Virus record (IMG/VR): IMGVR_UViG_2675903606_000013 | Coordinates: 1-6,745 of that record | Direction: 5' to 3' (one strand) | DNA: 6,745 bases | From: a virus | Taxonomy: Duplodnaviria > Heunggongvirae > Uroviricota > Caudoviricetes | Shown here: positions 1 through 6,745 of the stretch, piece after piece | Layout: every line of letters starts with the position of its first letter | Position numbering within the stretch: the first letter of the stretch is position 1 | Notes under the pieces: generated by a model | What the model was told of the DNA's origin: nothing | The model's database searches: none | Seen by the model: the letters and a program-made list of their open reading frames with translations, nothing else | Translations under genes and position numbers: made by a program

Positions 1-76
1 GGCCCTTTAGCTCAGTGGTGAGAGCGAGCGACTCATAATCGCCAGGTCGCTGGTTCAAATCCAGCAAGGGCCACCA
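1..76 (+). tRNA. ileZ: tRNA-Ile2-like (anticodon CAU; formally also readable as Met)
   Basis: Hand-folded cloverleaf with canonical numbering: perfect 7-bp acceptor stem (GGCCCTT/AAGGGCC), D-arm GCTC/GAGC, anticodon loop CT-CAT-AA, T-loop TTCAAAT, discriminator A and encoded CCA. Closely resembles E. coli ileX/ileY-type tRNA as remembered. The symbol follows the 933W ileZ-argN-argO naming and is tentative. Confidence 0.88.
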
Positions 77-83
77 TCACATA

Positions 84-157
84 CCGCCATTAGCTCATCA
101 GGAAAGAGCGCCAGCCTTCGAAGCTGGCTGCGCGGGGTTCAAGTCCCCGAAGGCGGT
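84..157 (+). tRNA. argN: tRNA-Arg (anticodon UCG)
   Basis: Cloverleaf: D-arm GCTC/GAGC, anticodon stem CCAGC/GCTGG with loop CT-TCG-AA, 5-nt variable loop, T-arm CGGGG-TTCAAGT-CCCCG. The acceptor stem has one A-A mismatch (positions 6-67) and the 3' end is TCA, not CCA. The symbol is by position in a 933W-like cluster and is tentative. Confidence 0.72.
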
Positions 158-173
158 TCATTATCTGTATCCT

Positions 174-250
174 GCGTTGTTAGCTCAGCCGGACAGGGCA
201 ATTGCCTTCTAAGCAATCGGTCACTGGTTCGAATACAGTAGAACGCGCCA
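174..250 (+). tRNA. argO: tRNA-Arg (anticodon UCU)
   Basis: Cloverleaf: D-arm GCTC/GGGC, anticodon stem ATTGC/GCAAT with loop CT-TCT-AA, T-loop TTCGAAT, discriminator G and encoded CCA. One mismatch each in the acceptor stem (G-G) and the T-stem (G-A). The symbol is tentative. Confidence 0.72.
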
Positions 251-265
251 CACTTATTTTCCCTG

Positions 266-289
266 GCTCGCTTTTGCGGGCTTTTTTTT
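266..289 (+). terminator. Intrinsic terminator downstream of the tRNA cluster
   Basis: Hairpin GGCTCGC-tttt-GCGGGC (6 bp including one G-U pair) directly followed by T8 (282-289). Confidence 0.75.
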
Positions 290-500
290 AAATGTCTCAC
301 AATTCAGGCGGTTGACTGTTGTCTGGTTTGCGGGGAGTTTGTTAAAAGAAACTGGCATGGTGAATCCCCCTGTGCGGAGGGGCAATCAGCAACTGGTGTT
401 TTGTCACCGACCCTTATCCTTTCTGTGCGGGTTCAGGTGCTGATACTGAACTCACCGGGAGGCACCCGGCACCATGCAATGGCACATAGCGCCACTCTCC

Positions 501-527
501 AGCCCCTCTCCGGAGGGGCTTTCTTAT
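501..527 (+). terminator. Intrinsic terminator (+ strand)
   Basis: Perfect 8-bp hairpin AGCCCCTC-tccg-GAGGGGCT followed by TTCTTAT. Confidence 0.65.
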
Positions 528-531
528 GGAC

Positions 532-560
532 AAAAAAAGCCCGCGCAGGGAGACGCGGGC
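532..560 (-). terminator. Intrinsic terminator oriented for leftward transcription
   Basis: 7-bp GC-rich stem GCCCGCG/CGCGGGC with an 8-nt loop. The A7 run at 532-538 on + becomes a U7 tail on the minus-strand transcript. It faces the + terminator at 501-527. Confidence 0.6.
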
Positions 561-753
561 GGCAAGGAATAAACAACAAAACGTGAAGTAATATTTCAGC
601 TGGCGAATAATATCCGACAGTAATCACTCTGCGCAATAGCGCGGCCTTTTTCGTATTGCGGGCTGTTGTCTCTCTTCTGCCATTGTCCTGTAACTTCCGG
701 ACTTCAGCCCGCTCCTCATTTTACTCACAATATTATCCAGGCCGGGAGGATTC

Positions 754-2715
754 ATGGCATTTAAACACTATGACGTGGTCAGGGCGGCGTCGCCGTCAGA
801 CCTTGCGGAGCGACTGACACAAAAACTGAAGGAGGGGTGGCAGCCATTTGGCAGTCCGGTGGCCATCACGCCTTATACCCTGATGCAGGCCATTGCGGCG
901 GAAGGTGATGTCACCACACCTGTGGTGGTGAAGCCGTCGGATGGAGAAGGCGCAGTTATCAGCACCACCAGCAACCCGGAGTATTACTTTGTTGTTGCCC
1001 TGGCCGGGCAGTCAAACGGTATGGCGTATGGTGAAGGGCTTCCGCTGCCGGAGACATATGACCGTCCGGACCCGCGTATTAAACAGCTGGCGCGTCGCAG
1101 CACTGTCACGCCGGGTGGTGCGTCCTGTAACTACAATGACATTATTCCTGCGGACCACTGCCTGCATGATGTTCAGGATTTGAGTAAGTTTTCACACCCG
1201 AAAGCCAGCGCAGCTCAGTATGGATGCGTGGGGCAGGGATTACATATCGCGAAGAAATTGTTGCCGTTTATTCCGGCGAATGCCGGTATTCTTCTGGTTC
1301 CGTGCTGCCGTGGTGGTTCTGCATTTTTGGCGGGCGATGAAGGTACCTTCAGCGAATCCACCGGCGCAAGCGAGACCTCGGCACGCTGGGGTGTAGATAA
1401 GCCACTGTACAAGGACCTGCTTACCCGTACTCAGGCCGCACTGAAGGCTAACCCTAAAAATATTCTGCTTGCAGTGGTCTGGATGCAGGGCGAGTTTGAT
1501 TTGAAACAGGGTGCATACGCCACTCAGCCGGGGCTGTTTGATTCCATGGTGGAAAAATATCGTTCTGACCTGTCGGAATTCGGAGGTCAGTGTCTCGGGG
1601 GCTCTCCGTCATCGGTTCCCTGGATTTGTGGCGACACGACCTACTACTGGAAGCAGACTTATTCTTCGCAATACGATGCGGTGTATGGTGCATACAAGAC
1701 GAAATCCGCAAAAAAAATCTTCTTTGTGCCGTTTATGACGGATGAAAACGGGCGAAATGTGGGTACCAACGAGCCGTCAGAAGATCCGGATGTTGCGGAT
1801 ATTGGGTATTACGGAGCCGGTGGTCGAACGGACGCCAAAACCTGGACGACGGCCGACCGTAAAACGCATTTTGGATCATGGGCACGTCGTGGGATTATTT
1901 CCGACCGTCTGGCAACGGCGATTCTTGTGCATGCCGGGAGAACCGCTGAATTCATTACCGGAAAACAGCCTGATACGGTGAAGCCCACCGGACCTTCCGG
2001 TGAAGGTACGGAGAGAGAGCCGGAAGCCCCGGTCAGTAACCGAACCCTGATGAGTCTGCTGGCGTCCGGCGAAGACCTGGCATCACAGGGCTGGCGCTAT
2101 TATCACAAACCGGCGAGCGGAGACAATGTTAACAAAAACATTGCTGAAGCGGTGGTCAGTGATGCGGGGGCTACGGGAGGTAAGGCCCTGCAACTGAATA
2201 AACCGGAAAACCACATCTGGTTTCTGGAGCATGATGCAGCCGGACAGGGAGTGGAGTTACTGAAGAAGGGGGGACGTGTGAGCGTACGGTTTAAGTTGCC
2301 GGGTTCACTGGTGCCGAATCGGTTTGCCCTGGGCATTTACTGGCAGTTGTCGTCCCTGCCGGAGGGAGTGACGCTGGCAGAGGAAGGCAACGACATGCTG
2401 ATGTCCTTCTTCCTGCAGACGGATGCGACGAACCTGAACGCGATGTACCACAAGAAGCCGAATGCGAAGCTGGATACGTTCGGGGTCTTTGATAACGGAT
2501 GGCACACACTGGCTTTTGAGTTTGCCGGAAACAACAGCATTCAGGTGACGCCGGTACTGGATGAGAAACGGGGGACGCCGTTCACACTGGTGAAATCTCC
2601 GGCATCAGGGGCGGCGGACAAACTGCAACTGACAGGCATATCAAAGGCGGCGACATATACGCTGCTGATTGACAGTGTGAAGGTGGAAGTGAACAACGCG
2701 GATGCCGCGGCATGA
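754..2715 (+). CDS. nanS-p: Prophage sialate O-acetylesterase, NanS-p type (N-terminal DUF1737-like region, SGNH/DUF303 esterase domain, C-terminal lectin-like domain)
   Basis: 653-aa ORF with SD GGGAGGA 6 nt upstream of the ATG. The block YYFVVALAGQSNGMAYGEGLPLP...PRIKQLARR matches the GQSN catalytic-serine block of E. coli NanS/YjhS as remembered. Length and position (after the tRNAs, before the lysis genes) match the large esterase ORF of Stx-type phages. Confidence 0.9.
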   Translation: MAFKHYDVVRAASPSDLAERLTQKLKEGWQPFGSPVAITPYTLMQAIAAEGDVTTPVVVKPSDGEGAVISTTSNPEYYFVVALAGQSNGMAYGEGLPLPETYDRPDPRIKQLARRSTVTPGGASCNYNDIIPADHCLHDVQDLSKFSHPKASAAQYGCVGQGLHIAKKLLPFIPANAGILLVPCCRGGSAFLAGDEGTFSESTGASETSARWGVDKPLYKDLLTRTQAALKANPKNILLAVVWMQGEFDLKQGAYATQPGLFDSMVEKYRSDLSEFGGQCLGGSPSSVPWICGDTTYYWKQTYSSQYDAVYGAYKTKSAKKIFFVPFMTDENGRNVGTNEPSEDPDVADIGYYGAGGRTDAKTWTTADRKTHFGSWARRGIISDRLATAILVHAGRTAEFITGKQPDTVKPTGPSGEGTEREPEAPVSNRTLMSLLASGEDLASQGWRYYHKPASGDNVNKNIAEAVVSDAGATGGKALQLNKPENHIWFLEHDAAGQGVELLKKGGRVSVRFKLPGSLVPNRFALGIYWQLSSLPEGVTLAEEGNDMLMSFFLQTDATNLNAMYHKKPNAKLDTFGVFDNGWHTLAFEFAGNNSIQVTPVLDEKRGTPFTLVKSPASGAADKLQLTGISKAATYTLLIDSVKVEVNNADAAA

Positions 2716-2716
2716 T

Positions 2717-2753
2717 AAAAAAAGCCGCCAGCGGCAGGAACGGAAGCTGGCGG
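2717..2753 (-). terminator. Intrinsic terminator oriented for leftward transcription, abutting the nanS-p stop codon
   Basis: 8-bp stem CCGCCAGC/GCTGGCGG (2725-2732 with 2746-2753) and a 13-nt loop. The A7 run at 2717-2723 gives a U7 tail on the minus strand only; the + strand side has no U-tract. Confidence 0.6.
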
Positions 2754-2850
2754 AGGTAATCCCAATGGAGAATGTAAAGAAAAGATGCTTTCGTATATCG
2801 GTTTTTTAAATGAAAACAGTTCTCATTGTCAACCATAACGGTAAGAAACT

Positions 2851-3033
2851 ATGACATTTATTCATCAGGTGATGCTGTACTTCTGTACGGCGGTCTGTGT
2901 GCTGTATCTTCTTTCGGGTGGGTACAGGGCAGTGCGCGATTTCTGGCGCAGGCAGATTGATAAAAGGGCCGCAGAGAAAATCAGTGCCAGTCAGTCAGCC
3001 GGAACAAAACCCGAAGAGCCTCTCATTCCGTAG
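2851..3033 (+). CDS. Hypothetical small membrane protein (60 aa; N-terminal TM segment, basic C-terminus)
   Basis: ORF with a weak RBS. Hydrophobic stretch VMLYFCTAVCVLYLL followed by a charged tail. No family recognised. Confidence 0.35.
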   Translation: MTFIHQVMLYFCTAVCVLYLLSGGYRAVRDFWRRQIDKRAAEKISASQSAGTKPEEPLIP

Positions 3034-3070
3034 CAACTTTCTTAACAACACCTTTCAACGAGAAAATACC

Positions 3071-3340
3071 ATGTCAGAAATAAAATCGCTGGTCACTGCT
3101 GAAGCAGTGAAGGAAGTCCTGCGCTCTGAAGAAGTCAGAAGCGCACTGAAACAGCAACTTCGGCAGAACCTTGAGGCGCGTCTTGATGCAGAAGTGGATG
3201 CCATTCTGGATGAACTGCTGGGCGCACCGACTGTTCCGGAGCCGGAAGGCATTGCGGATGACAGTGCTGTTTCAGATGGCGTCGGGTCTCAGCCTGATGG
3301 TAGCAGTGAGCCTCAGCCTGACGGCGAAATGATGATGTAA
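3071..3340 (+). CDS. Hypothetical acidic protein (90 aa from the internal ATG; helical N-terminus, D/E/P-rich tail)
   Basis: Uses the internal ATG at 3071 of track ORF 2897..3340, with a weak GAGA SD 7 nt upstream. The 5' extension from 2897 overlaps the previous ORF out of frame and looks non-coding. No family recognised. Confidence 0.45.
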   Translation: MSEIKSLVTAEAVKEVLRSEEVRSALKQQLRQNLEARLDAEVDAILDELLGAPTVPEPEGIADDSAVSDGVGSQPDGSSEPQPDGEMMM

Positions 3341-3415
3341 CCATGCGCAGGGGCTGTCGGTGTGAGCTGATGCCCCTCTTGTTGTTGTGAGCTTCCGGAT
3401 TGCGGGAGACGGGGT

Positions 3416-3631
3416 ATGTACCAGATGGAAAAAATCACAACAGGTGTGTCATACACCACGTCAGCGGTGGGAACGGGCTACTGGTTCCTGCAGTTGCTGG
3501 ACAGGGTTTCCCCGTCTCAGTGGGCGGCAATAGGTGTGCTGGGAAGTCTGCTGTTTGGCCTGCTGACGTATCTGACAAACCTTTATTTCAAGATTAAAGA
3601 AGATAAGCGTAAGGCGGCGCGGGGAGAGTAA
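3416..3631 (+). CDS. S: Class II holin, phage 21 S-type pinholin (71 aa), dual-start motif Met1/Met4
   Basis: The translation ([64 protein letters not shown]) closely matches the S21 pinholin as remembered, with two TM segments and a basic C-terminus. SD GGAGA about 7 nt upstream. Lies immediately upstream of a SAR endolysin. Confidence 0.88.
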
Positions 3632-3635
3632 AGCG

Positions 3636-3968
3636 ATGAAGAAAAAATACGAACTGGTTGTTAAAGGGATAAATAATTACCCGGATAAGATTACTGTTAC
3701 TGTGGCACTGGAAATTGGTGGGTATCCGTCACTGTTGTTGCCAGATGTGGCGATTAGTCTTGACCGTACTGAAGGTGCCACGCTGGAGTTTTACGAAGCT
3801 GAGGCGAAAAAGCAGGCGAAGCAGTTTTTCATGGATGTTGCTGCCGGGTTATGTGAAGGGGATGGTCCGTTGCCGGAAAAGCGGCCCATCATTTTAGAGG
3901 CGCAGGATGTGTTGATAATCTACAGAGGAAAACTACCGGGAATAATTACTGGTTCTCTGAAGACTTAA
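3636..3968 (+). CDS. Hypothetical protein (110 aa) inserted between holin and endolysin; no TM segment or signal peptide
   Basis: Strong SD GGGAGAG 7 nt upstream; the start is 4 nt after the holin stop. Soluble-looking sequence. It sits where some E. coli prophages carry a ydfR/DUF1327-type gene, but membership cannot be verified from memory. Confidence 0.65.
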   Translation: MKKKYELVVKGINNYPDKITVTVALEIGGYPSLLLPDVAISLDRTEGATLEFYEAEAKKQAKQFFMDVAAGLCEGDGPLPEKRPIILEAQDVLIIYRGKLPGIITGSLKT

Positions 3969-4010
3969 CATATCCAGGGATTTGAAATCGATAAACCCTG
4001 ATAAATATCC

Positions 4011-4544
4011 ATGAACACCAAAATCAAATACGGCCTGTCGGCTGCCGTTCTGGCGCTGATTGCCGCAGGTGCGCCTGCGCCTGAAATCCTCGACCAGTTT
4101 CTGGATGAAAAGGAAGGTAACCACACCACGGCATACCGTGATGGCGCGGGTATCTGGACCATCTGTCGCGGTGCCATTCTGGTGGATAGTAAACCTGTCG
4201 TCCCGGGCATGAAGTTGTCGAAGGAAAAATGCGACCAGGTTAACGCCATTGAACGTGATAAGGCGCTGGCATGGGTGGAGAAAAACATCAGAGTGCCACT
4301 GACCGAACCCCAGAAAGCGGGGATCGCGTCATTCTGTCCGTACAACATTGGTCCCGGTAAGTGTTTCCCGTCGACGTTTTATAAACGAATTAATGCAGGT
4401 GATCGAAAAGGTGCCTGCGAAGCGATTCGCTGGTGGATTAAGGACGGTGGCAGAGACTGCCGTATTCGCTCAAACAACTGTTACGGTCAGGTATCCCGTC
4501 GCGACCAGGAGAGTGCGCTGGCGTGCTGGGGAATTGACAGATAA
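4011..4544 (+). CDS. R: SAR endolysin, T4-lysozyme-like (GH24) phage lysozyme R, 177 aa
   Basis: N-terminal Gly/Ala-rich signal-anchor-release segment YGLSAAVLALIAAGAPAP. Catalytic triad spacing E35-x8-D44-x5-T50 within EGNHTTAYRDGAGIWT. The size and sequence match the Stx-phage/phage-21 R family as remembered. Confidence 0.92.
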   Translation: MNTKIKYGLSAAVLALIAAGAPAPEILDQFLDEKEGNHTTAYRDGAGIWTICRGAILVDSKPVVPGMKLSKEKCDQVNAIERDKALAWVEKNIRVPLTEPQKAGIASFCPYNIGPGKCFPSTFYKRINAGDRKGACEAIRWWIKDGGRDCRIRSNNCYGQVSRRDQESALACWGIDR

Positions 4545-4633
4545 GCAGAATATTTTGCTGAAAAATAAGGCGTGGCCACGCGGGCGGATAACACGAAATC
4601 CTGCGAACTGGCGAAACGTAAGTGAATAAAAGT

Positions 4634-4677
4634 AAAAACCCCGTTTGTTGGCACCAAGCGGGGGTTTGTGTTTCTGA
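4634..4677 (+). terminator. Intrinsic terminator-like hairpin downstream of R
   Basis: A-run, stem CCCCG/CGGGG (extendable with A-U pairs), a 15-nt loop, then TTTGTGTTTCT. Confidence 0.5.
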
Positions 4678-4700
4678 CCTTGAGTAAGGCAAGGGAGAAC

Positions 4701-4883
4701 ATGGCGAAGTATAAACGAATTCTGTTGAGGTTGACCATGAAAAACGGCCTTGAACTGAAAGCGCCTGTAACTGATGACATCAGCAGAGCACTGGCTTTTG
4801 CCATTAAGTGGGTGGCGGTCGGTGTTGCTGTGTCCCCGATGCTGTATGGGCTGGCAAAACTGGTCATTGCGTTGAAATCGTGA
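4701..4883 (+). CDS. Hypothetical small membrane protein (60 aa; basic N-terminus, C-terminal TM segment)
   Basis: ATG at 4701 preceded by AAGGGAGA (short spacing). C-terminal hydrophobic segment [22 protein letters not shown]. The track ORF begins at a GTG inside the terminator hairpin, which is judged unlikely to be the start. Confidence 0.45.
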
Positions 4884-4897
4884 AGGGAGGATTAAGC

Positions 4898-5029
4898 ATG
4901 TCAGACAAACTCATAACGCTGGCGAAGATCCTCTGTGTAATTGTCGGCATTTCATTTTCACTAATGCTGGTTGCTCTTTTTCTTTCCATGGCCTGGATGA
5001 TGTTGTCTTCGTCGGGGCTGCTGGGGTGA
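4898..5029 (+). CDS. Hypothetical 43-aa hydrophobic peptide (single TM segment)
   Basis: ATG at 4898 with a strong SD AAGGGAGGA 7 nt upstream that overlaps the stop of the previous ORF. Translation [43 protein letters not shown]. Its stop TGA (5027-5029) overlaps the GTG at 5026 at the head of the Rz ORF. Confidence 0.45.
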
Positions 5030-5526
5030 ACATAAACCGAATGCTTTCCGCGTTTATCGTTATTCTGCTGGTGGCCTGTGGTGCGCTGTGGATGGCAACA
5101 GACCATTACCGTGATAACGCGATTACCTACAAAGCGCAGCGCGATAACAAAGCCAGTGAACTGAAGCTGGCGAACGCAACCATTACTGATATGCAGGTGC
5201 GCCAGCGCGATGTTGCTGCGCTCGATGCAAAATACTCGAGGGAATTAGCCGATGCGAGAGCTGAAAATGAAACTCTTCGCGCTGACGTTGCCGCTGGTCG
5301 TAAGCGCCTGCGGATCAACGCCACCTGTCCAGGCTCCGTGCGTGAAGCCCCCACCACCTCCGGCGTGGATAATGCAACCGGCCCCCGACTGGCAGACACC
5401 GCTGAACGGGATTATTTCATCCTCAGAGAACGGTTGATGACAATGCAGAAGCAGCTGGAAGGGGCGCAGGAATATATCCGCACTCAGTGCACTAAGCTGG
5501 CTTTTTATTATCCGGAGGATATATGA
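5026..5526 (+). CDS. Rz: Rz inner-membrane spanin (i-spanin)
   Basis: N-terminal TM segment ([16 protein letters not shown]) followed by [14 protein letters not shown]...[19 protein letters not shown]...[11 protein letters not shown], closely matching lambda Rz as remembered. Start is either the GTG at 5026 (coupled to the upstream peptide) or the ATG at 5041. Confidence 0.9.
5252..5437 (+). CDS. Rz1: Rz1 outer-membrane lipoprotein spanin (o-spanin), embedded in the +1 frame of Rz
   Basis: Lipobox LVVSAC, then the Pro-rich core [26 protein letters not shown], matching lambda Rz1 as remembered. The ORF lies entirely inside Rz. An alternative start is the ATG at 5267. Confidence 0.85.
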
Positions 5527-5747
5527 AGAAATTACTGGTAACCGTAAAGCCTTTTCAGGGAACAATTCTGTTCCGTATTTTGCAGCGTGGTCGTGTTCTT
5601 GTTGAAGGTTCGTTCAGTGGTAAATGTACGCAATTACACTCCCGGACCTTTCAGGTGAATGCCACGAATGAAGAGCTAACCGTGGAGTGTACGATGAATG
5701 CCGCTAAATGCCGCATGGTATCCGCTGCATTACAGCCAGTGTGTTGA
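5523..5747 (+). CDS. Hypothetical protein (74 aa, four Cys), translationally coupled to Rz
   Basis: ATGA overlap with the Rz stop (ATG 5523-5525, TGA 5524-5526). SD GGAGG 5 nt upstream. No signal peptide and no recognised family. Confidence 0.6.
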
Positions 5748-6022
5748 GCGACCTTATTATCCATGCGCGGTATTGTCGCCGTATTCCCGCATTAACAGAG
5801 ACCGCAGCCCGACCGGGAGACTCCTCTTCGCGAGTGTGCGGGGATAATCAAAAACGATACACACCGGGGTTTACCGCGTTAACGGAGCGCGGCGTTGCCC
5901 CTCATAGTCGCCTGTCCGGTGCGATGGTGGAAGAAGCCGGACGATGTGTTACCTCGCAAGCCCTGTTATGTGTCTGATTTGTGATTTAAGTCGGATAATT
6001 GTCGTTGCCATCAAGCAGAGGA

Positions 6023-6065
6023 TTGATGACCGACAGGGTGGCATTGTTAGAATAAGACTTATTCT
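6023..6065 (+). promoter_or_regulatory. Promoter-like element with an overlapping perfect palindrome, upstream of the TonB-C lipoprotein gene
   Basis: TTGATG at 6023-6028 and TAGAAT at 6048-6053 (a long 19-bp spacer). A perfect 8-1-8 inverted repeat AGAATAAG-A-CTTATTCT at 6049-6065 overlaps the -10 region. Confidence 0.4.
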
Positions 6066-6079
6066 TATCTGTGCCGGGA

Positions 6080-6412
6080 ATGAAAATGAAAAGAAATCTT
6101 CCGTTAATTATTTTGTTGTCTTCTCTGGTTATGGGCTGTACGCAACATAAAACAGATATGCCCCGACAGTTGGTGAAGGCATTACCACAATATCCGGCCT
6201 ATGCAGCGGCAAATTATATAAAGGGACGGGTTGATGTGAAGTTTGATATTGGTGCTGATGGTACTGTCACCCGAATTGAGTTTATCCGTTCAGAGCCGCA
6301 CCATCTGTTTGATGAGCAGGTTGTAAAGGCGATGGCAAAATGGCGATTTGAGAAGGACAGGCCGCGTAAAGGCGTGAAGAAAACGTTTATCTTTAGTCCT
6401 TCTGCACCCTGA
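6080..6412 (+). CDS. Lipoprotein consisting of a stand-alone TonB C-terminal domain
   Basis: Signal peptide MKMKRNLPLIILLSSLVMGC with lipobox and Thr at +2. The mature part (LPQYPAYAAANYIKGRVDVKFDIGADGTVTRIEFIRSEPHHLFDEQVVKAMAKWRFEKD...) aligns along its length with the E. coli TonB C-terminal domain as remembered, including the QYP motif. There is no Pro-rich spacer and no N-terminal TM anchor. Alternative starts are the GTG at 6071 and the ATG at 6086. Confidence 0.8.
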   Translation: MKMKRNLPLIILLSSLVMGCTQHKTDMPRQLVKALPQYPAYAAANYIKGRVDVKFDIGADGTVTRIEFIRSEPHHLFDEQVVKAMAKWRFEKDRPRKGVKKTFIFSPSAP

Positions 6413-6543
6413 TTATTTCATCAGAAATTAATTATCACTCTGTTGTTATTCTGTACATCCCGGCTGGGTAAGTCTTGTTCCGCCGGGTATGAAGATGAAA
6501 TATTGTTGGAGGACAGTGGGTACCTGCTCCTGTAACCGAACGT

Positions 6544-6744
6544 TCATTTCTCGTTATTTGTCATGCTGGCCGTACGCAGATGCGTTGCATCTGTTGCCAG
6601 CCTTCTCCTGCAGGCTTCAATAACCCACGCTGAAAAGTTACCGGAACCTTTATGTTCAAGGGCGATGTTGATCTGTTCAATCATGTGATTGGGGAAACGG
6701 ATATTGCGGGTTGTGGTTCTGCGGGTCCGGTTTTTCGATGACAT
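6544..6744 (-). CDS. Small ribbon-helix-helix-like DNA-binding protein (possibly YlcI/YnfO-type); 5' end may lie beyond the window
   Basis: Minus-strand ORF of 66 aa from the first in-window Met. The segment NIRFPNHMIEQINIALEHKGSGNFSAWVIEACRRRL has a strand-helix-loop-helix pattern typical of RHH proteins. Its position before the expected terminase genes matches small prophage ORFs of the YlcI/YnfO type, but this is from memory only. Confidence 0.55.
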   Translation of the reverse strand: MSSKNRTRRTTTRNIRFPNHMIEQINIALEHKGSGNFSAWVIEACRRRLATDATHLRTASMTNNEK

Positions 6745-6745
6745 A

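Follow-up and report, generated by a model that had tools for sequence, protein, structure and literature searches.

Accessory membrane proteins encoded close to phage endolysins have precedents. The releasin of phage Mu (gp25, DUF2730) is a late, non-holin protein with a single transmembrane domain (TMD), which is encoded near an endolysin of the signal-anchor-release (SAR) type and aids the departure of the SAR domain from the membrane (PMC9239132). In phage P1, the accessory membrane proteins LydC and LydD are encoded beside a SAR endolysin, and lydE, of the lyz-lydD-lydE operon, was suspected to be a lysis regulator; its removal from a plasmid-borne operon gave no lysis phenotype (PMC9025707). 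Morons are defined by a promoter and a terminator of their own and are expressed from the repressed prophage (PMC3594210). Here, we analyzed positions 1 to 6,745 of the IMG/VR virus record IMGVR_UViG_2675903606_000013 (Caudoviricetes; "the window" hereafter means this whole stretch of 6,745 nucleotides, nt), which is the late (lysis) region of an Escherichia coli lambdoid prophage and has an identical copy in E. coli strain PRO_A-1443-6M-A_ESBL. Between the endolysin gene R and the spanin genes Rz and Rz1 lie a hairpin and two small open reading frames (ORFs), ORF1 and ORF2. Both ORFs are almost certainly real genes, their products are predicted to be single-helix membrane microproteins of the inner membrane, and the R-Rz junction that holds them is a mosaic slot for interchangeable microproteins, the gene ant and methyltransferase genes. 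The interval and its flanking genes are composed as follows.

4011-4544, plus strand: R, an R21-like SAR-type phage lysozyme, the upstream neighbor of the interval
4545-4633, plus strand: conserved leader directly 3' of the R stop codon
4634-4673, plus strand: terminator-like hairpin, with an A-run (AAAAA, 4634-4638) and a T-rich tail (4664-4673)
4639-4647 paired with 4655-4663: 9-bp stem of this hairpin, with a 7-nt loop (4648-4654); GTTTGTGTTT follows
4672-4699, plus strand: putative second small hairpin (UUCU..CCUUG/CAAGG..AGAA), overlapping the Shine-Dalgarno (SD) sequence of ORF1
4691-4697, plus strand: ORF1 SD, AAGGGAG, ending 3 nt before the ATG
4701-4883, plus strand: ORF1, 60 aa, WP_001151823
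4884-4897, plus strand: 14-nt spacer that carries the ORF2 SD
4884-4890, plus strand: ORF2 SD, AGGGAGG, 7 nt before the ATG
4898-5029, plus strand: ORF2, 43 aa, WP_001280932
5026-5043, plus strand: ORF2-Rz junction, with the ORF2 stop TGA (5027-5029) and the Rz start candidates GTG 5026 and ATG 5041
5041-5526, plus strand: Rz, inner-membrane spanin (i-spanin; PF03245, E = 3e-49)
5252-5437, plus strand: Rz1, outer-membrane spanin (o-spanin), embedded in Rz

ORF1 and ORF2 share some properties with each of the described systems. As the first and second genes after R, they lie within the five-gene distance that is seen for releasins, and a Pfam scan of the two proteins gave no match to DUF2730. 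The Mu releasin has 99 aa, comprising an N-out TMD at the N-terminus and an anionic cytoplasmic domain of 73 aa, whereas ORF1 has a C-terminal helix behind a basic N-terminus, and ORF2 has no soluble domain and is also found with a non-SAR endolysin. P1 lydE is likewise a tiny late ORF located 3' of a SAR endolysin and a pinholin and overlapping the end of the previous gene (PMC9025707), but it has no sequence relation to ORF1 or ORF2, which precede the spanins and belong to two different families. The pinholin/antiholin S21 68/71, encoded in the same cassette, resembles them in being small, late and located in the inner membrane, and its dual start has a possible counterpart in ORF1 (M1 and M13); however, ORF1 and ORF2 share neither the two TMDs of S21 nor its highly basic C-terminus. 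The two are holin-like as small single-helix proteins in a lysis cassette, placed between R and Rz, but do not carry the charged basic C-terminal domain of holins and antiholins, and neither matched a holin family in Pfam. Mimicry of S21 TMD2 by the ORF1 helix was considered and rejected: 4 of 1000 shuffles reached the score (3 of 2000 for the TM segment alone), which is marginal after about 20 comparisons, the hhalign probability was 1.4%, and there was no resemblance to the Salmonella holin. We keep it only as a lead.

HK97 gp15, a YebO-like superinfection exclusion protein, is comparable: it is small, resides in the inner membrane, and its gene is an add-on within a late operon that shows mosaic spread. 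However, it comes with a promoter and a terminator of its own, is produced from the prophage (PMC3594210) and has no sequence similarity to ORF1 or ORF2. As for the definition of morons (Juhala 2000; Cumby 2012), the insert is extra DNA relative to a closely related cassette (strain 190), and neither a promoter-like site upstream of its ORFs nor a terminator-like hairpin downstream of them was found. The families of ORF1 and ORF2 have already been catalogued and the cassette is well known; the two genes are not a new kind of system.

The 60-aa ORF with a C-terminal membrane helix described in an initial annotation, which was made from the sequence alone, was borne out. ORF1 consists of a basic N-terminal segment and a C-terminal hydrophobic helix (best 19-residue hydropathy window, 1.88), and AlphaFold gave a weak N-terminal helix followed by a long helix at residues 23-59 (predicted local distance difference test score, pLDDT, about 85). 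The net charge of +5 in the N-terminal flank suggests an N-in topology; the C-terminal flank carries +1 and ends in ...ALKS. The ratio of nonsynonymous to synonymous polymorphism (pN/pS) was 0.17 in its own frame versus 0.88 and 1.78 in the other plus-strand frames, and the constraint was tightest from Met13 on (0.10-0.14). Relatives were found in E. coli, E. marmotae, and Salmonella. RefSeq annotates ORF1 as a hypothetical protein CDS, and its PHROG matches (phrog_1115, 4493, and 3246, with E = 2.6e-42, 4.3e-30, and 4.5e-19, respectively) are all labeled "unknown function". An internal ATG at 4737 (M13) has a GAGG of its own (4727-4730) and would yield a 48-aa isoform, the form that many gene callers annotate. 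Codons 3-19 (4707-4757) are unusually conserved: the approximately 48 nt after codon 2 contain one difference between E. coli and Salmonella, and the next 132 nt contain 34. RNAalifold placed an invariant hairpin around the internal start at Met13. Possible causes of the conservation of codons 3-19 are two alternative starts, a structured RNA or a patch of recent recombination.

ORF2 likewise agrees with its first description as a 43-aa hydrophobic ORF with a strong SD. AlphaFold predicted a single helix at residues 2-38 (pLDDT 89), the best 19-residue hydropathy window reached 2.89, and the C-terminal flank, with a net charge of 0, ends in ...SSSGLLG without a soluble domain. In its own frame, pN/pS was 0.46 (0.84 and 1.41 in the other plus-strand frames), and 14 residues were invariant among 17 diverse sequences. 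ORF2 is annotated in RefSeq as a hypothetical protein CDS and matched phrog_4906 (E = 2.1e-23), a family of "unknown function". Its homologs include P8983 ORF53 and, in E. coli O157:H7 Sakai, ECs_1966/XECs191, which is located in prophage Sp10 on the strand of the lysis operon, between ant and Rz. The Sakai homolog has been listed as the novel translated ORF XECs191 (Hücker et al. 2017). In lysogeny broth (LB), it had an RNA level of 30.0 reads per kilobase per million mapped reads (RPKM), a footprint RPKM of 12.6, a ribosome coverage value (RCV) of 0.43 and a coverage of 0.55, and it was predicted to be an inner-membrane protein with one transmembrane (TM) helix (Hücker et al. 2017). From the strong SD, the intactness in most loci and the ribosome profiling (RIBOseq) of the Sakai homolog, ORF2 is very probably translated, as had been argued initially.

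ORFs of the size of ORF1 and ORF2 are frequent by chance in the window. Both nevertheless rise above chance because of their conservation, frame-specific substitution and annotation, and the ribosome profiling of the ORF2 homolog. The initial annotation had named noncoding drift with disrupted frames in relatives as the contrary outcome; this is contradicted by ORF2, which was intact in 63 of the 71 loci fetched through ORF1, and by the frame-specific pattern of substitution. Both ORFs are also intact in the plaque-forming phage PhiR5_2.

The hairpin after R that had been proposed as terminator-like also proved real, with its 9-bp stem, A-run, T-rich tail and covariation in relatives. In the window it folds at -15 kcal/mol (z = -1.67), and a T-to-G change weakens its T-rich tail. 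Among relatives, the most frequent allele, CGGGG-TTTTGTGTTT, has a fold of -18.9 kcal/mol (z = -3.66), which none of 200 shuffles equaled. Covariation was assessed in 10 distinct variants from E. coli prophages, Salmonella, a Shiga toxin (Stx) 2c phage and the record of the "Actinobacillus" phage pPE4. Among these, 94.4% of the cells were paired in the stem, compared with 31-58% when the partners were slid, and compensatory changes were found at two pairs. Two positions form U-G pairs that would be A-C mismatches in a leftward transcript, and the minus-strand version of the window hairpin folds at only -11.6 kcal/mol; therefore, the hairpin acts in the rightward, late-operon RNA. In lambdoid late transcription, RNA polymerase modified by Q passes such terminators. 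The hairpin would thus shield the downstream genes from transcription without antitermination. The first ~85 nt of the leader are common even to the ant-type Stx phages, and positions 1-155 of the query matched many prophages at 85-96%, regardless of which gene came next. The second small hairpin, which would occlude the ORF1 SD, was not established: with 96% pairing it is compatible with the data, but 48 of 500 shuffles matched its covariation score, and its fold (-7.4 kcal/mol, z = -0.9) was ordinary.

No promoter-like site was found on the plus strand between 3946 and 5700, and the R-Rz region of phage 933W also had none. The number of promoter-like sites in the region was at the chance level (3 found; 2.0 +/- 1.5 expected). 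No terminator-like hairpin lies between ORF2 and Rz, the sole one being located 5' of the ORFs. As initially noted, the stop codon of ORF2 overlaps the earliest candidate start of the Rz ORF, GTG 5026. Given the absence of a promoter-like site, the short spacers and this stop-start overlap, ORF1 and ORF2 are most simply read as genes of the late operon whose translation is chained into that of Rz, and they probably depend on late-operon expression.

RefSeq starts Rz at ATG 5041, 11 nt past the ORF2 stop. In one class of loci, Rz (MNRV...) starts at an ATG located 7 nt past the end of ORF2, and this codon reads ATA in the window; the Rz start of the window class is therefore ambiguous between GTG 5026 and ATG 5041. 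A start at GTG 5026 preserves the N-terminal Arg typical of Rz, and a start at ATG 5041 drops it. Every ORF2 allele ends in GGGGTGA, which appears to be a recurrent recombination junction.

The contents of the slot differ among related cassettes. The arrangement in which R directly abuts Rz, which had been suggested for comparison, does exist within this cassette type, as shown by strain 190, where lysozyme is encoded at 912-1445 and rzpD at 1442-1903. Closely related cassettes of this kind make the insert optional. The observed arrangements are as follows.

Empty, with the R stop overlapping the Rz start: strain 190
Hairpin, ORF1 and ORF2 (~496 nt): the window, and the commonest arrangement in the locus set
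ant and ORF2: Stx phages, including P8983 (ORF53), 933W and Sp10
Hairpin, ORF1 and a 28-aa peptide, MSAEFIRAMAFSIRIVAIAVLVWAIRWW: locus L126
ORF1, ORF2, a partial ORF1 and the 28-aa peptide: locus L046
ORF1, ORF2 and a 311-aa methyltransferase: locus L132
ant, ORF2 and a Dam-like methylase: locus L221
Hairpin and a 45-aa "...GQIRWW" protein: an Stx2c phage and AR_0372

Four families of microproteins thus occur in the R-Rz junction: ORF1, ORF2, the 28-aa peptide and the 45-aa peptide. The ORF1 helix and the 28-aa peptide are related (none of 500 shuffles reached the alignment score), and the peptide matches the same PHROGs as ORF1. ORF1 accompanies the hairpin-leader. In Salmonella, an HP1-type holin and a SAR lysozyme are followed by the hairpin and ORF1, then by Rz after a further 10 nt, and ORF2 is absent. 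Of the loci fetched through ORF2, 105 had an intact ORF1 and 3 a disrupted one, and 37 had none. Because each occurs without the other (ORF1 in Salmonella and ORF2 in the ant-type Stx phages), the two are independent units and not obligate partners.

An R21-like lysozyme was encoded upstream in 195 of the 198 loci with enough upstream sequence. In the three others, an M15-peptidase endolysin and a multi-TMD holin pair are followed by ant, ORF2 and Rz, and a specific tie to SAR endolysins was rejected for this reason. The pPE4 record (PP818812.1, "Actinobacillus phage vB_Apl-pPE4"; L241, 2496-2711) shares its hairpin, its leader and its SD with the window, but there they precede a 45-aa "...GQIRWW" membrane ORF and lie between baseplate genes. 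From this occurrence, we conclude that the hairpin-leader-microprotein unit is portable and has moved horizontally between lysis and tail operons.

Further rearrangements were seen. The methyltransferase genes between ORF2 and Rz are of two different kinds (L132, 3337-4272, 311 aa; L221, 3271-4038, a 255-aa Dam-like enzyme). In L046, where the interval has 712 nt, a GTG overlapping the ORF2 stop opens the 40-aa partial ORF1, which is followed by the 28-aa peptide. The proteins P0205, P0213, and P0218 join the N-terminus of ORF2 and a tail of ORF2 read in the +1 frame to the C-terminus of ORF1; such fusion "proteins" derive from L046-like rearranged loci or from frameshifted loci.

Parts of the interval were present in 2,121 of 5,426 complete E. 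coli genomes, with at least 80% of the interval in 990, and a 1-kb query from the end of R to the start of Rz was covered to at least 80% in 1,565 genomes. Full-length ORF2 was found in 276 phage records, mostly Stx1- or Stx2-converting. In 933W, the reference annotation has no gene in the 153-nt gap between ant and Rz (27424-27576; L242, 2924-3077), and a 48-aa ORF2 homolog is intact there. A literature search by RefSeq accession and locus tag found no mention of ORF1 or ORF2, and neither is mentioned in an Stx-phage architecture paper or a spanin census.

Taken together, the explanation that we prefer, at a probability that we put somewhat short of even, is that the interval is an optional accessory slot in the late operon, whose products would be dispensable inner-membrane modulators of lysis. 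Late transcription antiterminated by Q would pass the hairpin, so that ORF1 and ORF2 would be made at lysis together with Rz and Rz1, and the microproteins would insert into the inner membrane and act there as accessory modulators of envelope disruption. ORF2 would most likely act with the i-spanin or on its expression, since its constant neighbor is Rz across three holin/endolysin backgrounds (S21/R21 cassettes, the ant-containing Stx phages and the M15-peptidase cassette). ORF1, whose family includes the 28-aa relative and follows SAR endolysins in both E. coli and Salmonella, would most likely tune membrane events before or at the release of the endolysin. The two are most likely fine-tuners, and not core lysis genes or a toxin-antitoxin (TA) pair.

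Several observations weigh against this explanation. Strain 190 carries the same holin/YdfR/lysozyme set as the window without the insert, and to our knowledge the insert is not present in lambda or phage 21. The same slot holds cargo unrelated to lysis (ant and the two kinds of DNA methyltransferase), and in the pPE4 record the hairpin-leader and the 45-aa gene lie between baseplate genes, so that they are not tied to lysis genes. The C-terminal half of ORF2 is poorly conserved, and about 10% of the ORF2 copies are disrupted. The RIBOseq signal of XECs191 came from uninduced cultures and may mean either spontaneous induction or lysogenic expression. An antisense frame that shares the wobble positions of ORF2 has the same pN/pS and is stop-free, which rules out pN/pS as proof of the strand; the strand assignment of ORF2 consequently rests on the SDs, the direction of the operon, the RefSeq calls and the published ORF call. 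The distribution is also narrow: relatives were detected only in Escherichia and Salmonella, a search with an ORF2 profile among 1.84 billion representatives gave only 29 close hits or fragments, and the GTDB representative genomes (one genome per species) contained no relatives.

A competing explanation, possible but rather unlikely in our estimation, is that the microproteins are shuffled for a purpose other than lysis, the likeliest being to block DNA injection by superinfecting phages, as HK97 gp15 does, or else another change of the host membrane. Exclusion and lysis timing had both been named in the initial annotation, and both are possible roles that the sequence by itself does not tell apart. 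The optional insert and its slot-mates, ant and the methyltransferases, are in keeping with such cargo, and the 45-aa unit among the tail genes of pPE4 recalls HK97 gene 15, which is also located among tail genes (PMC3594210). The footprints in uninduced Sakai cultures point in the same direction, but the signal is low and fits spontaneous induction. Similarly, the GC content of the insert is about 5 points lower than in R and Rz (0.48 vs 0.54), whereas its GC content at third codon positions (GC3, 0.57-0.59) is like that of the neighbors. PADLOC detected no defense system, no promoter-like site precedes the ORFs, and the ORFs run into Rz with the sole terminator upstream of them, all of which speaks against this explanation.

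We consider it distinctly improbable that ORF2, as well as the 28-aa and 45-aa ORFs, matters chiefly for its translation, by restoring the translational coupling lost when an insertion parted Rz from R and by unfolding the Rz start. In cassettes without an insert, the Rz start overlaps the R stop, and the GGGGTGA at or before the Rz start also provides the sole SD-like G-run for Rz. Three unrelated small ORFs hold the last position, and the C-terminal half of ORF2 varies freely at an overall pN/pS of 0.46. P1 lydE, whose removal has no lysis phenotype, is a comparable overlapping ORF (PMC9025707). A role as a coupling leader, however, would not require the frame-specific constraint and the 14 invariant residues among 17 sequences, nor the long hydrophobic helix encoded by all the alternatives. 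Furthermore, ORF2 is intact in L132 and L221, in which a methyltransferase gene lies between ORF2 and Rz, and ORF1 is left unexplained.

The initial annotation had also suggested a toxin with its partner, in the manner of type I TA peptides, that is, a membrane-depolarizing peptide whose action an antisense RNA or the second peptide would restrain. We regard this as very improbable. Type I toxins (Hok/Gef, Ldr, TisB, Ibs, ShoB, and ZorO) are similarly hydrophobic, with at most 60 aa and one helix, and ORF1 and ORF2 fall within this range (60 and 43 aa, with one long helix each). A minus-strand promoter-like site lies inside ORF1 (4737-4708), the perfect-stem alleles of the hairpin could serve a leftward transcript, and a possible structure occludes the ORF1 SD. 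The promoter-like sites are nevertheless at chance, a common allele breaks the putative -10 element of this one (TATACT to TACACT), and the G-U pairs of the hairpin would not form on the minus strand. In contrast to type I toxin genes, ORF1 and ORF2 are located in mid-operon, are inherited apart and have no antisense gene, dedicated promoter or toxin-family match. An antisense RNA was sought by sequence in the interval, among the promoter sites and in Rfam, and none was found (no Rfam family matched 4545-5040). Pfam, NCBIfam and PADLOC detected no toxin or defense family in either protein; a DUF3930 hit (E = 0.08) was below the cut-off.

That the ORFs are leftovers, either decaying remnants or chance frames linked to R and Rz, draws on the frameshifted or truncated copies (the L133 group, L201, and L050), the fusion proteins in databases, the narrow and young families and the commonness of such ORF sizes by chance, but it is highly implausible against the frame-specific substitution, an intact state in about 90% of copies, conserved SDs, RIBOseq, 67-98% protein identity across E. 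coli, E. marmotae, and Salmonella, the presence in viable phages and the lack of similarity between ORF2 and spanin N-termini beyond shuffles. On the last point, derivation of ORF2 from a spanin N-terminal TMD was rejected: its scores against three Rz N-termini were within those of the shuffles, except for a marginal 10 of 500 with the Salmonella Rz, and tblastn of ORF2 at E <= 10 returned only full-length ORF2 homologs.

The remainder of the window contains the following features, given without strand.

1-250: three tRNA genes
326-531: full-length match to the STnc100 small RNA (sRNA) family (143 bits, E = 1e-32)
3416-3631: S21-type class II holin (Phage_holin_2_1, Pfam)
3636-3968: YdfR/DUF1327 ORF, 110 aa (Pfam)
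5523-5747: 74-aa ORF, whose start overlaps the Rz stop (ATGA); phrog_2571 (unknown function), without a Pfam match
6071-6412: TonB-C-like lipoprotein gene (RefSeq, "TonB family protein")

The first tRNA was called tRNA-Met (CAT) by ARAGORN and tRNA-Ile by RefSeq (presumably the lysidine-modified reading), and the other two are tRNA-Arg (TCG and TCT). The STnc100 match lies directly 3' of the three tRNA genes, at the site of the stx genes in Stx phages. It is followed by a NanS-p-like SASA esterase gene and ORFs with DUF1378 and DUF826, which precede the S21-type holin. The YdfR/DUF1327 ORF, between the holin and the endolysin, is a second uncharacterized insert of the lysis cassette and was seen in 128 of the 198 loci. 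Locus L240, from an Stx2c phage, also keeps the 74-aa ORF 3' of Rz. The TonB-C-like lipoprotein gene occupies the position of bor or iss in other lambdoid phages; its best PHROG (1267) is labeled "Rz-like spanin", which looks doubtful. A YlcI/YnfO gene after it ends the gene order.

Lambdoid lysis is usually seen as a closed four-gene problem consisting of a holin, an endolysin and two spanins. A large share of E. coli prophages encode conserved membrane microproteins between R and Rz, and a small hairpin with its leader travels with differing microprotein genes. A bolder proposal, which we consider unlikely on the comparisons available, is that these microproteins, of at least four families, would be an interchangeable fifth component of the lysis cassette, carried by the portable hairpin-leader unit, made at lysis time only and setting the timing or completeness of envelope breakdown through interaction with the pinholin, SAR endolysin or Rz TMDs. 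If so, ORF2, upstream of Rz in hundreds of Stx1 and Stx2 phages, would influence the timing of Shiga toxin release. If the microproteins serve exclusion, they would represent a new family of minimal anti-phage membrane proteins. If they tune lysis or the spanins, they would be relevant to burst timing and to the release of Shiga toxin, whose exit from the cell is through phage lysis.

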